The position numbers are program-made. Source: Candidatus Obscuribacterales bacterium (lineage in GTDB: Bacteria; Cyanobacteriota; Vampirovibrionia; Obscuribacterales; Obscuribacteraceae). Taken from it: a stretch of 64,000 bases of DNA. The stretch spans positions 2,752,001 to 2,816,000 of the forward strand of contig CBDDIJ010000003.1 of NCBI GenBank assembly GCA_965228855.1. The letters are read 5' to 3'. Shown here in pieces: positions 44,701 through 50,700 of this stretch (position 1 is the stretch's first letter; every line of letters starts with the position of its first letter).

Positions 44701-47700
44701 TGCCACACGTCACCTTCCAGCCAGCCGCTGGGGCTCACGGTGAGCTTACCGGTTTGTTGTTGATCCGCGCTTACTTCGAAGCAAAAGGTCAAACGAATAG
44801 AAACATCGTCATCGTGCCCGACACCGCCCACGGTACCAACCCTGCGACCGCAGCGCTCGCCGGCTTCGAAGTTGTCGAGATCGGATCGAACGAAAAAGGT
44901 TTGGTCGACATTGAAGCTCTGAAAGGCGCTTTGAACGAAAACGTAGCGGCCATCATGTTGACGAACCCGAACACCCTCGGTTTGTTCGAAGAAGAAATCA
45001 TGACGGTTCAAAAGCTCATGCACGAAGCCGGCGGTATGTTGTACTACGACGGCGCGAACTTGAACGCGATCATGGGTCTGGTCAGACCGGGCGACATGGG
45101 CTTCGACGTCTGCCACCTCAATCTGCACAAGTCGTTCTCCACTCCTCACGGTGGTGGCGGTCCTGGTGGTTGCGCCGTCGCTGCCCGCAAAGAACTTCTG
45201 CCATTCTTCCCGAAACCGGTTGTTGTCAAAACTAATGACGGGTATGAATTTGATTGGAATCGCGAGCAATCAATCGGAAAAATCAAAGGGTTCTTCGGCA
45301 ACTTCGGAATTCTGGTCAGAGCCTATACCTATATTCTTGCAAACGGAAGAGAAGGTTTAGAGCAGATATCACGAGATGCGATTCTCAACGCCAACTACCT
45401 GAAAGAACAGCTCAAGCACATCTACGATTTACCGCACACGCAATCGTGCATGCACGAGTTCGTCATATCCGGTTCGAGACAAAAGGCTCGTGGAGTTTCA
45501 ACTTCGCACATCGCCAAACGCCTTCTGGATTACGGTGTTCACGCTCCGACAGTTTACTTCCCGCTGGTAGTGCCGGAAGCAATGATGATTGAGCCGACAG
45601 AAACAGAATCGAAGGACACCCTCGACTCGTTCGTCGAAATAATGACGAGCATCGACAAAGAAACCATAGAGACACCGGATGTGGTGCTTAATGCGCCGCA
45701 CACGACGCCGGTGGCGAAATTGGACGAAGCACTTGCTGCTCGCAAACCCAATCTAAGATGGACGCCGGGCACTTAAGTGCACTTAGGAACCACATTTCGA
45801 AGCAGCATTCGATAACCGCAAGATTCCGAAGAGCATTGGAAACCACATTCCGAAGCACCATTCGGGAGTGCTCATTGCCATAGAATCCTCACCGCCGATA
45901 CATAAAATCGGCTGCCATGAGCTGGCTGGCGAACCCAATAGCGCTGCAAACAGCGTAAAATAGATTAATTACCCGGGACGTTGATCGCAGGCCCGTCGAT
46001 GTCGTTTCTCTTAGGCTTCCAGAATAAATCCGCTGATGCGGAGCCATACTCCCTCACCGCAGATGCCCTGCGGCAACATTTGCTCATCACCGGCGGACCA
46101 AGCACCGGTAAAACAAACACATGCTGGCAACTTCTCACGGAGCTGAGCAAAGAGCAAGTTCCTTTTCTCATGCTGGAAACGTCCGGCAAAAACTATCGGA
46201 AACTGACGACCGAGCAGGCTTCAATTCGCACGTTTTCGATATGCGACGACGCGAAAGACTCGCTCCGCTTCAATCCGCTGCGATGCGAATCGCATGTGCG
46301 CATTCTCAATCATATACAAACCATTGTGTCCCTCACGACAGCATCTTTCAATCTTTCGATAACGTCCTCAAAGGTGCTTGAGAAGGCGCTATATGCCGTC
46401 TACAACAATCATGGCTGGAATCTGTTCAGAAACAGAAACAACCGCGTCAAACCGAACGAGAGCGGTGAATCCAGCGGCTATCCGCCGGAAGCCTATCCCA
46501 CCCTTCTGGAACTCCTGGAGTTTATTGAAAGCGTTCCGTTCGCGAATGTGTTGGCAAGCAACCCGCCCCAGGAATTAGTGCGCGCGATTGATTCACTCGT
46601 ATCGGCCAGTAGTGGTGCCGTATTCAATACCAAGTTAGGACTGCCTCACGATTTCTACGAACACAGTCAGCTGCTGGTCGAGTGTGATGGTATCTCGGAT
46701 ATTCGCAACAAGTGTTTCCTCGTCGGCATGCTGTTGTTGCAAGTCAACGAACATTATATGAAACAAGTCGATGATCGAGAAAAGCGTTGCATCGTGATCG
46801 ACGATGCGATTCAACTGACCTATTTGATGGGTCTGCCCGGTCGACGCGTCGGCGACGATCAGAAGGAGGACAGCTGGATTCCACTGTCGACTCTTTTGGG
46901 AAATCTGCGCCGTCTTTCCGTGCCACTTATTCTTTCAATGCAGGCATCAAGCAAGCTCAGTCAAGATTTGATCGCACTGTTCGGTACAAAGATTTTTCAT
47001 CGGATCGACGTTCAGCAAGCCAAACAAATTTCAAACGGTTTACCAGAAGACCTTGATGAAAAGGAGCTCTACAAGTGTCCTGTCGGTGCCGCCTGGGTCG
47101 TAGGACAAGATCAACCTGCAAGTGTTTTTTTGAAAGTTCCAAAACATGACATTCCCGAGCGAGATACTTCGGTCGCGAACATCGGTTCGATGAAAAACAC
47201 TTTGAACTGCCGATACGCAGGCTGCTCCTCATTTCCCGGTGCCTGCGAGGATGACACCTTCGTCAAAGCGCGCGAGATTGCAGATAGTCAGGCGTTTCGC
47301 ACTATATATGTAAACTACTTCCTGAGCTGCCAGAAAGATCTCACTCAGCTGGTTCATTTCCGCGGAAGGCTGGTTGGCGAGTTGCAATCGCAGATAGGCA
47401 AAAAATTTCCCGACATCGTCGAGTTGAGCTGGTGCACAATTTGTCAGGCGACCGAATGGTATTTCGATAAGCTCGCTCGCGAACATGGTTGGTCCTATGC
47501 GGATTTGCATGAACAGAAGGAACGTTGGTTCAGTATGTTGCGCCCGGCGTTTCTACCGGATTGGCCGACGAGACGAATTAACATCGACGATCTTCGCCAG
47601 TGGCGTGATGAGTTTTGGAAATTGAAAGAACGCGACCAGGGTCCGCTTCCGCTCTGCGGAGAGTGTGACGCGAAGTGCAGATATGGATCGGATGTCGAAC

Positions 47701-50700
47701 ACATACTTCTAGATTCTCGCAACGAAAACGATTTTTTCAAAGCATTGTCCGGAGAGACGGAACCGCTCTCTAAGGCAGCTGCGTGGTTCTGCTGGCTGTT
47801 TTCCGAACGAGTGATGGGTGAACCTGACTTCGACCTCGCTTATTGCTTTGCAGCGCACTTCCTGGGGCGCGCGAACCTGAGTGTCGATGCGCAACTCGTA
47901 TTCGCGCACAAGACACGTCAGCAACTCGAAGATGCTAAACAAAAGTTCGAAGCCGGCGAACCAATTTTCCCGACGCCTGAAACCAAAACAGAAGAAACTG
48001 AAAAAGAAGCGAGAAGACGTCGCGCCAGAGAAAGAAGAAAAAATCGTCAGGATGGTGACGAGCCTCCTCTCAAGCCAGTTCCCTGATTCTTATCTTTTCC
48101 CGATACGATACATATCTCGATCGAGAGCACCACATATATCGCTTGTGTGAATGCGTTTAAGTTCACTCTCGTTTATTGACTTTCGTAACGAACTGGAGTT
48201 AGATCTGTCGTGTGAGGAATGCGCGAACTGGGGTAGTGCAGAAGTCACAAGTTTTGAAGGAACGGGGAGAACCCATCTGCTCTGGACCGCTTACGCGGTG
48301 TAGGTTGATGTTTCGTCAACCAGTTTGGTGTGGTGTCATTTCCAGCGACAAAAATTGCTGCTGGGGTTCTGAAAGAAATTCTCGAAGAACCGTTATTAAG
48401 GGACTGAGCGTTAATCCGGCGCATTGATTCCTAGCGGGGCATGGGTCTCCTCCGTTTCTTCAATTACTGACTGAACAGTTTTCGCAGAAAACAAAGAGTT
48501 TGGTGGCATGTACGATATCAATACCCTCGATCAACTCGCCGGCGAATTAGCCGTGTCCGAATTCGAGCTATTGCGGTTCGTATATCGCAGCGGTGAATTT
48601 TACAGAAGATTCAAACGCAGAAAGAGCAACGGTGACACCCGCGTCATCCACGCTCCCGATGAGCCTTTGAAGAGTCTTCACCGGGCAATTATCAAACGCT
48701 TTCTCGCTCCAATTCCATTGCCTGATGCCTGCACAGGTTTTCGTCCAGGCAAGTCGATACTAAACAACACGATTCCACATTGTGGAAGACGTTTTGTCTT
48801 CAATGTCGACATAGAAGATTTCTTTGCATCGATATCTTCTGAACGAGTTCTGGGCTTGTATCTCAGGCTTGGGTTCGCTTTTCCGGTCGCCTGCGTGTTG
48901 ACGGAACTAACTACTTTTATGGGCTCGCTGCCACAAGGCGCGCCATCCTCTCCTTATCTCGCCAATCTGATTGCGCACAGTCTCGACATGGAGATGACCG
49001 AGTACTGCAAAAACAGAGGCTGGACGTACACTCGTTATTGCGATGATATCACCATATCTGGTGACACCACTTTCACGCTCGGCGATATGAAAATGGTTAC
49101 CGAGATTCTGGACTCGGAAGGCTTCCAGTTGAACATGAAGAAAACCCGCTTCCTGCGCCGAAACTCAGCGCAAATGGTATCAGGTCTGGTAGTGAATAAA
49201 CGACCGAACTTGCCTCGCGAAAAGCGACGCAATATTCGTGCGATGTTTCACCAAGCCAGCATAAGTCCGGAGAAATACAAAGAGCGCACGCAAGAGCTGG
49301 AAAACCACCTTTCGATGCTTTCAATGTTGAATCCACAAGATGCCGAGGTTATCAAATATCGCGCGATTTTAAACAAAGTCTGCGCCCAAGCATAAAGTTT
49401 AGCGACCGTCTGAGCCTAACTCAGCGAACCGAACACAACCGCAGAGAGCCGCGTGATTTCGTCGATCACGCGGCTCTCTGTTTCTTGGCAAACCAGATAG
49501 ACGAAGTGCTCAAGCGAAGCCAAGCGACTGAAGCCAAGCCATTAGCTCGAGCGAAGTGAGCAATCATCTCAAGCGAAACCAAGCGAGCGAAGCCAAGCCA
49601 TCAGCTTGATCTACCCCGAACCAGATCTACCTAGAACCAGATCTACGCAGAACCACTTAACGCATCAAATTGCTGTATTCCATTTGAAACTGAACGTATT
49701 GCTTCTTCTCGAGCAATCTAGCTATTTCGCGTCTAGTGCCTTTGATGGGAGCCAGACAAGACAGTGCCACGAAATTGATGAATGTCAGCGGTGTTAGAGC
49801 CATGATAAACTTCGTCACTTCATCGCCATGCATACCGTAGTAGCAAGCCATCGCAAGGTAAAAGCCAATCAGATTGCAGACCAGAAAGATGACGCAGTGC
49901 ATAACGAGGAAAAAGCGTTCGCGAATCAATGACGCATTGAGCGACTCCATCTCACTGAGCAATGCCGGTGGAACTGATCCTGCGGCGCCACCACTGATTT
50001 GAGCGAACGTAGGAGCGCCGCCGGTCGGAGGGAGTGGAACAGTGTTGCCTGCCGGATTCATGGACGGCGTTGGTGCCCAATCCATCTTGGTTCCGGAAAT
50101 CTGCGAAAGACGAAACGCTTCCAATTTTGCCAGGTCATCATACGAAACAGTATTCGGTATTGCGACCTGCTGAGGCAGAGGCTGCGAGAATGACTGTTGC
50201 GCGTATTGAGGATTTACGTGATTGTTCTGTTGAACAAAGCCAGAAGGGACCCCGTTCTGGCTTGGATAAACTTGTGGAAAATTGTTCGTAACTTGTTGTG
50301 CCTGGAAGTTACCGGTGTTTTGCGGCCCCTGGAAATTTCCTGCTGGTGCCTGATAGTTACCCGTCTGAACCTGAGAATTTCCTGACTGAGCCTGATAGTT
50401 CCCTGTCTGAGCCTGATAGTTACCCGTCTGCGCCTGATAGTTACCGGTTTGCGCCTGAAAATTCCCTGTTGATGCCTGGAAGTTACCTGTCTGCGCTTGA
50501 AATGCTCCCGCCTGAGCTTGAGGTTGACCTGCGTGCGTTTGGTAGTGATTGTTTTGCGACTGATGCATGCCTGGCTGAGGCTGAACGGCGTGGAATGAAT
50601 TGGTTACCGCCTGCTGCGCTTGCTGGTAGTTACCTGTCACCGTCTGTGGTGGCTGCACATAACCCTGACCGAATTGATGCGCGGACGCTCCTGGCACACC

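Follow-up and report, generated by a model that had tools for sequence, protein, structure and literature searches.

The 64,000-nucleotide window analysed here, a stretch of contig CBDDIJ010000003.1 of Candidatus Obscuribacterales bacterium, harbors a genuine retron, made up of a reverse transcriptase (RT) gene and a structured RNA, for which msDNA formation is predicted from sequence. This assignment is based on an intact RT, co-varying a1 and a2 arms, two opposing guanines and two msr hairpins. It is very probable that the RNA-RT unit, with its own upstream motif, reached the gap between gcvPB and a Zn-ribbon gene a single time, before five genera diverged from their common ancestor, and was retained there, and that the ATPase gene now lying beside it came later and in one genus only.

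The reverse transcriptase

The RT is encoded on the plus strand at window positions 48508-49395 by the intact 295-residue open reading frame that the initial annotation had described, with NTIPH in region X (residues 87-91), YCDD at 177-180 and VSG in region Y (224-226); its catalytic aspartates (D101, D179 and D180) are intact. Profile scores and a structure match place it in the retron clade, the closest solved RT structure being that of Retron-Eco1 (Ec86; 7v9u, E 5e-44). The PADLOC ranking reported earlier, with RT_II-A and RT_III-A at the top, was reproduced: the II-A, III-A and XIII models gave 240-251 bits, with RT_II-A as the best. The g18 and g36 orthologs carry NA(L/Q)PH in region X, with the H of region X and the G of region Y kept throughout, and the RT of genus g2 shows P(I/T)G where the others have PQG. 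The dN/dS values of 0.013-0.10, similar to those of gcvPB and obtainable for 15 of the 16 gcvPB-site pairs, indicate that the RT is under strong purifying selection (rounded range 0.01-0.10).

Structure and expression of the retron RNA

The inverted repeat proposed for the RNA is present at 48254-48276 and 48441-48463 and continues inward to 48284 and 48435, so that its arms enclose 150 nt. On the plus strand, the a2 arm (48254-48284), recognized by the inverted repeat, the fold and covariation, is followed immediately 3' by the predicted branching (priming) G at 48285, which faces a G; then come the msr (48286-48321), with hairpins a (48286-48299) and b (48303-48321), the msd template (48322-48434, about 112 nt, ending in the opposing G at 48434) and the a1 arm (48435-48463), again recognized by the inverted repeat, which brings the closed RNA next to the RT gene. 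The branching G formed part of the search motif; the G preceding a1, absent from that motif, is found in 31 of 31 copies. For positions 48240-48480 the predicted folding energy is -94.6 kcal/mol (z -5.1), a stability that none of 200 shuffles reached. Pairing between cognate arms yields -33.3 kcal/mol, compared with -16.9 when an arm is taken from another group, and in 25 of 31 copies the best partner is the cognate one. Double changes occur at 9 of 20 a1/a2 pairs, a level that 0 of 500 shuffles attained. A long stable msd stem-loop is not seen in the gcvPB copies, where the msd forms several short hairpins (three in the window) and no single long stem; as DNA, the msd is often no more stable than shuffles. 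The six copies of genus g2, in which the sequence motif surrounding the branching G is different, all escaped the RNA model. The RNA matched no retron family in Rfam.

Upstream of the RNA, conservation points to a promoter belonging to the retron itself (48132-48205, plus strand), with an ATATA box, an AT..CT(A)A box, TTGACT at 48176-48181 and TTAGATC at 48199-48205; a generic sigma-70 scan did not list it. A genome-wide regulon built on the upstream box was considered but found no support: scores are 37.9 and 32.3 for the two RNA promoters and 34.3 for one further site, and the remaining matches are comparable to what the reversed genome gave as a control (35 versus 26 matches). A 16-bp hairpin at 49442-49480, listed on the minus strand and located between the RT and the convergent gene, is a probable terminator. 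Metatranscriptome contigs from three of three runs (three studies), picked for containing part of the query, cover 48223-48513, that is, only the RNA; they give no strand, ends or level, and the absence of contigs over the RT and the ATPase was given no weight. They provide a hint that the retron RNA is expressed.

Genomic site and inheritance

To the left, outside the retron, lies gcvPB (44325-45776, plus strand; glycine dehydrogenase subunit 2, Pfam GcvP2_C and GDC-P), which was matched in 100 of 107 genomes. To the right, on the minus strand, is a core neighbour of gcvPB that encodes a protein with a Zn-ribbon, a Q-rich part and a membrane segment (49657-50892); since this gene also flanks gcvPB at 29 of 32 retron-free sites, it was rejected as an effector. 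The fixed chromosomal position inferred earlier within the genus extends well beyond it, with an orthologous retron at gcvPB in 19 genomes from five genera, representing all 19 sampled clade genomes in which the site is intact. At the gcvPB sites of other genera, neither RT nor RNA was found in any of the 32 fetched. The carriers group together as a single clade both when five site-linked genes are used for the tree (support 1.0) and when an unlinked core ATPase is used (0.97), and a quick version of the RT tree recovers the same groups as the host trees. These sequence comparisons indicate that the retron was acquired once, in congruence with the host tree.

Outside the family, the RNA model picked up a single weak match in genomes of the class (E 5e-4), and the motif matched 32 times in 185,579 genomes, the six matches without an RT being set aside as chance. 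Distant RTs occur in 11 of 400 sampled phylum genomes outside the order, with no RNA motif and no ku or ligD within 1.5 kb.

The sister copies behind ku and ligD

A sister lineage shares the RNA and the promoter layout with the gcvPB copy. The 37 RNA-model matches in 107 genomes comprise 14 in the gcvPB-site clade, 22 after ku-ligD and one elsewhere. Five of the ku-linked RTs were scanned and had RT_XIII as their best model (282-319 bits); region Y reads VTG in most sister RTs, versus VSG in the window RT, and the msd of most ku-linked copies is one long irregular stem.

This arrangement raises the possibility that the family is an end-joining module, in which the msDNA or RNA binds and gates Ku/LigD in repair or defence and the gcvPB RT serves RT-less RNAs in trans, a reading that we consider doubtful. 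The RNA lies behind ligD at 22 of the 26 closest ku loci, in seven genera (16 with an RT, five without, one at a contig end), and at none of ten fetched loci of the distant ku type; however, the closest group was defined using a query from a retron-linked locus, and its other four loci lack the RNA. Five genomes, the source genome included, have lost the ku-linked RT and retain the conserved RNA there; these RNAs, of which one lies at C2:2357444-2357615 on the minus strand of genome G000, form one lineage, and all five genomes carry the gcvPB RT. Four of these RT-less RNAs were compared; their identity is 59-73%, while four-fold sites in ku and ligD have 26-51%, and the folding z-scores of the RNAs range from -2.9 to -5.4. 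Nevertheless, hairpin b is damaged in the RT-less copies, the branching G is gone in one and the opposing G in two, which argues against priming in trans. RT and Ku-LigD distances correlate (r 0.84), as expected from common descent alone, and the adjacency to ku-ligD may be inherited synteny. Moreover, a Ku match is absent in four genomes carrying the gcvPB retron (G049 and G101-G103; 89-95% complete) and g2 genomes have only the distant Ku type, so Ku is not an obligatory partner of the gcvPB copy. A retron link to ku-ligD was not found in the literature searched, the supplementary cluster tables of PMC7736814 lying outside that search. A functional tie between the retron and end joining is possible. 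An extended scenario, in which an order-specific retron family was domesticated for end joining, its RNA or msDNA binding and regulating Ku/LigD, the RNA remaining under selection after RT loss and the gcvPB duplicate taking over RT supply or a second target, seems rather unlikely.

A retron without an effector in cis

Our preferred explanation is a domesticated retron of two parts, RNA and RT, lacking an effector in cis. From known retron chemistry, a2 would fold onto a1 in the RNA, the RT would prime on the 2'-OH of G48285 and copy about 112 nt of msd, and the product, a branched RNA-DNA molecule (msDNA), would be kept on the RT. We tentatively suggest that this RT-msDNA complex could act in trans on a host protein that binds DNA ends or single-stranded DNA, serving as its decoy or brake; ancestrally this protein would be Ku/LigD, given that the sister copies lie behind the ku and ligD genes.

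A distant effector is conceivable. If the retron were an ordinary defence system that, as an antitoxin, keeps an unlinked toxin in check, addiction would explain its retention in every sampled clade genome, and effectors in trans have been raised for orphan retrons (PMC7736814). We regard this as unlikely: there are no defence genes at the site, a single-protein search found no viral relatives of the RT and the best viral match of an alignment search was 39%, the only SWIM matches of the genome are in frames of about 1100 aa with no type XIII-like partner seen, and the ku-linked RT was cleanly lost in one lineage.

The neighbouring ATPase

The 695-residue ATPase frame is present as annotated, on the plus strand at 45999-48086. 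It is a genus-specific, truncated paralog of a VirB4/HerA-fold gene of about 1066 aa that is nearly order-wide (97 of 107 genomes) and from which it differs by the absence of the N-terminal ~385 aa and by the replacement of the Walker B EEAH with DDAI, Asp taking the place of the catalytic Glu; Walker A is kept. Its N-terminal half has the fold of VirB4, DndH, HerA and TrwB (4ag6, 7es4, 4d2i; E ~1e-9), not that of a STAND protein, and the nSTAND3 label given previously scores 25.9 bits, below the cut-off of 27.2. The C-terminal domain is helical and Cys-containing, with no Pfam match. A weak Rfam hammerhead match inside the gene (E 0.41) was ignored.

This gene had been presented as the only conserved neighbour of the RT and as the candidate effector of a new retron type. 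The first statement holds inside the genus, where the order ATPase-spacer-RT follows gcvPB in the window and in seven relatives (8/8), and fails beyond it. The ATPase occurs at 8 of the 19 orthologous retron sites; in the other 11 genomes, from four other genera, gcvPB and the RT are separated by 349-479 nt without an ATPase, as in the closest outgroup (RT 78% identical, 408 nt from the gcvPB end to the RT), and three metagenome loci (L223, L228 and L231) likewise read gcvPB-RNA-RT. Recruitment as an effector in this genus only, as Ec78 co-opted PtuAB, would fit the same-strand position directly upstream, the conservation within the genus, a dN/dS of 0.04-0.15 and the known swapping of retron partners (PMC7736814), yet it is very improbable. 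The RNA has its own promoter motif; in three of eight genomes 1458-1961 nt lie between the end of the ATPase and the RT, a wide separation already noted, and contain an opposite-strand frame of about 250 aa; no RT occurs in the 4-17 kb fetched around ten other short paralogs; the protein has no nuclease partner and lacks the catalytic Glu; and the gcvPB gap is an insertion hot spot that accepts other genes, for instance one resembling a permease in five of the eight genomes of the genus. A predicted RT-ATPase complex scored 0.11 against a mark of 0.32 and was counted neither for nor against a linkage. The ATPase was rejected as an effector because of its distribution and, from these sequence data, is judged a bystander, a later and unrelated insertion into the same gap, in keeping with the earlier caveat that plain vertical synteny might explain the pairing. 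A hidden small effector was also sought, and no small open reading frame in the RNA region is shared across genera; with the short upstream gap of the 11 genomes and the convergent core gene downstream, the retron stands alone.

That the retron is a selfish or neutral passenger of this hot spot is scarcely credible, given that its dN/dS is at the level of housekeeping genes and that its RNA arms show compensated changes across the five genera.

Comparison with known retrons

The Ec107-like branch of clade 2 and clade 11 likewise consist of msr-msd RNA and RT with no associated protein, and vertical inheritance and domestication have been suggested for such stand-alone clades (PMC7736814). Unlike the retron described here, they are found mainly in Gammaproteobacteria and Actinobacteria (PMC7736814), and the window RT obtains 217 bits with the Ec107-like model and 225 bits with the outgroup model, less than with II-A, III-A and XIII. 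Type XIII (Mx162, Mx65, Ne144; clade 10) stands out as the only type that shows signs of having been inherited vertically (PMC7736814), and it is the best-scoring model for the five sister RTs, whereas the window RT scores best on RT_II-A, a comparison of profile scores only. Its WH-SWIM/ARM genes are absent beside every copy examined here, according to gene maps, Pfam analysis of chosen neighbours and a SWIM search of the retron's own genome. Retron-Eco1 (type II-A3) has the closest solved RT, but here there is no NDT effector and the msd has several hairpins.

Type I-A (Ec78 with PtuAB; PMC12819146) also adjoins an ATPase and sets a precedent for co-opting a stand-alone module. Type I ATPases are ABC-type and accompanied by a nuclease of the HNH or Toprim kind (PMC7736814, Table 1), a combination not found at this locus, where the ATPase has a VirB4/HerA fold, no nuclease and a range of one genus; from its VirB4/HerA/TrwB/DndH kin it further departs in its Cys-containing helical C-terminus. 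Finally, domestication of a bacterial RT is also known from G2L4, which has been linked to the repair of double-strand breaks (bioRxiv 10.1101/2022.03.14.484287); that RT is a group II intron-like repair polymerase, while here a retron RT is accompanied by msr-msd RNA.

Significance

These results remove a false new retron type, which synteny at the genus level alone would have produced. The role of retrons without effectors has been left open (PMC7736814), and this family is a clean test case, with a fixed inherited locus, natural empty sites, a strongly covarying RNA and a hint of expression. In addition, its sister copy is linked to ku-ligD, natural variants that lost the RT reveal the parts of the RNA that rely on it, and its RT-RNA pairs are further candidates for retron-based DNA production. 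If the end-joining module were true, it would represent a retron with a role in host DNA repair and not a toxin.

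The reverse transcriptase and its relatives

The retron reverse transcriptase (RT, 48508-49395) and the neighboring ATPase (45999-48086) lie where the initial annotation had placed them. Strong profile matches of the RT were to retron models only, with no type clearly best, as already proposed (PADLOC RT_II-A 251 bits, III-A 243, XIII 240); NCBIfam St85 scored 216, below its cut-off of 235, and the closest solved structure is Ec86 RT. When 107 genomes of the order were searched, 49 had RT matches, and 20 hold members of a close clade (55-100% identity).

The source genome, G000, also carries a second, distant retron-type RT of 389 aa (L029, G000:C2:944459-945628; 37-39%) without the window-type RNA motif, and RTs of ~390 aa resembling it are present in several further genera. 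Copies in another carrier genus, g2 (L088-L093), are divergent: they have YGDD, P(I/T)G where PQG is usual, arms of greater length and a short msd (the reverse-transcribed template part); their dN/dS is about 0.03-0.04 despite this divergence.

The gcvPB site and the ATPase

Of the 20 close-clade RTs, 19 have gcvPB on one side and a convergent Zn-ribbon gene on the other, or sit on the gcvPB side at a contig end; that of G023 is elsewhere. The ATPase had been proposed as the effector of a new retron type. Although it is retained under purifying selection in 8/8 genomes of the window's genus, these are the only ones of the 19 orthologous sites that hold it; in the remaining 11 genomes (four genera) 349-479 nt separate the end of gcvPB from the RT. 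Among 14 metagenome matches to the RNA motif, three show gcvPB-RNA-RT without the ATPase, three include it, five follow ligD and three display neither flank upstream. No RT was found in the 4-17 kb fetched around each of ten other short ATPase paralogs, and the claimed new type falls.

The ATPase query matched 97/107 genomes, chiefly a ~1066-aa gene that the source genome also has, 245 kb from the window copy. Relative to this parent, the window ATPase is missing ~385 residues at its N-terminus, and its Walker B reads DD instead of EE; the second Glu is also lost in the other short paralogs wherever it aligns. The predicted structure of the window ATPase (pLDDT 81) matches VirB4, DndH, HerA and TrwB. 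A TrwB/VirD4-like gene directly precedes the ~1066-aa gene in four of five mapped Obscuribacterales-family loci, with one gene between in the fifth.

A conserved cluster at L110 (G000:C3:2546000-2565000), L111-L113 and L117 comprises the TrwB/VirD4-like gene, the 1066-aa DUF87 ATPase, a small ORF and a giant protein encoded convergently (in G000 it has 2498 aa and LysM), and has the look of a so far uncharacterised locus for secretion or DNA transfer. Short paralogs with degenerate Walker motifs (L102-L109, L115, L116) occur in several genera, those of g2 and G063 adjoining Ser/Thr kinase genes, and are possibly pseudo-ATPase regulators. Behind the RT (49396-49656 in the window), a ~635-aa gene is present in the near-identical G001 and in four further genomes of the genus; we call it permease-like as a description only, Pfam giving no match. 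G000 lacks it and has short tandem repeats (49572-49655) in its place. Imperfect ~20-nt repeats were spotted by eye in the gcvPB-ATPase gap (45790-45870).

Inheritance

From 100 genomes with a gcvPB match, 32 gcvPB sites of other genera were fetched, and none held the RT or the RNA motif; the Zn-ribbon gene lies near gcvPB at 29 of these, in some beyond other insertions. The carriers group together as a single clade both when five site-linked genes are used for the tree (support 1.0) and in a tree of the unlinked core ATPase (0.97), and a quick-method RT tree gives the same groups and the same branching within the genus. RT dN/dS was 0.013-0.10 over 15 pairs, one further pair being saturated. 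These empty sites, trees and low ratios indicate that the gcvPB-site retron was acquired once and then kept, unlike most retrons, which the Discussion of PMC7736814 describes as patchy and mobile.

Structure and possible expression of the retron RNA

The spacer before the RT, for which a retron-like fold had been claimed, folds much more stably than its shuffles (z -5.1). From 5' to 3' it holds arm a2, an unpaired G (48285), hairpins a and b (the msr), an msd of about 112 nt, an opposing G (48434) and arm a1. We compared 31 copies from across the groups; g2 was excluded for its different motif. A G directly precedes a1 in all 31. The pairing energy is -33.3 kcal/mol between cognate arms versus -16.9 with arms of other groups, and the best-pairing arm is the cognate one in 25 of the 31. 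In a 28-row alignment, double changes affect 9 of 20 named pairs, a count reached by 0/500 shuffles and by no slid control; the structure had been named from the same sequences, and at a1 the gcvPB rows of the alignment are not in register.

Most copies are preceded by a conserved motif with TTGAC and TAGAT-like boxes, absent from the listing of a generic promoter scan. Promoter-matrix matches at unrelated places (G000:C3:2034226, C2:77398, C2:552392) revealed a repeated palindromic element followed by TTGAC. Four sequencing runs were compared with the window. The three metatranscriptomes among them, from three studies, each have one contig that spans only the retron RNA (48223-48438, 48236-48513 and 48238-48441), a hint that the RNA is expressed; one has an additional unrelated 34-nt match inside the ATPase. 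The fourth run, probably DNA, covers the stretch almost completely.

A sister group behind ku-ligD

A second RT group (43-47% identity) shares with the gcvPB-site copies both the core of the RNA and the upstream motif. A covariance model, which overlooked the six g2 copies, found 37 RNA copies in 27/107 genomes. Of these, 22 lie behind ku-ligD (in one case with an intervening gene), 14 belong to the gcvPB clade and one is elsewhere. Among 87 Ku matches, the 26 most similar to a query from a retron-linked locus include those 22 loci with the RNA (16 with RT, five without, one truncated at the end of its contig); the RNA is absent from the other four and from all ten loci fetched for the remaining 61 matches.

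The RT-less copies (G000, G001, G003, G004, G007) go back to one RT loss; that of G000 (L242, G000:C2:2357444-2357615, minus strand) lies with its promoter directly behind ku-ligD. It and the other four retain their arms, and hairpin b has decayed. In the four compared, promoter, arms and msd features are preserved at 59-73% identity, above the level of shuffles (about 49%) and of the four-fold sites in ku and ligD (26-51%), which points to selection on the RNA that outlasts the RT. RT and Ku-LigD trees correlate at 0.84, a value that stems from common ancestry and says nothing about function. No Ku match was found in G049 or G101-G103, which speaks against Ku being indispensable to the window copy. 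At L097 (G049:C4), a ku-type retron has no ku-ligD nearby; its nearest metagenome relative, L224, has it.

Discussion

The window retron is a two-part, inherited and selected unit, probably transcribed, without a linked effector. The main text of PMC7736814 contains neither 'HerA', 'FtsK' nor 'ligase', and the portion available places orphan retrons in clades 2 and 11 only; that of PMC13712802 lacks 'LigD', 'HerA' and 'Cyanobacteri'. No report of this family emerged from mainly open-access literature at title level (retron with LigD/NHEJ, Ku with msDNA, Melainabacteria, Obscuribacterales reverse transcriptase). The locus is a stand-alone retron of a new form, its RNA uncatalogued and its sister group tied to ku-ligD. 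By established retron chemistry, branched msDNA would be primed at G48285. The retron might act in trans, its target being some DNA-binding protein of the host, with Ku/LigD as the tentative lead candidate. Because end-joining is linked to phage defence in mycobacteria, according to the available part of PMC12848934, the retron may serve in defence via end-joining.
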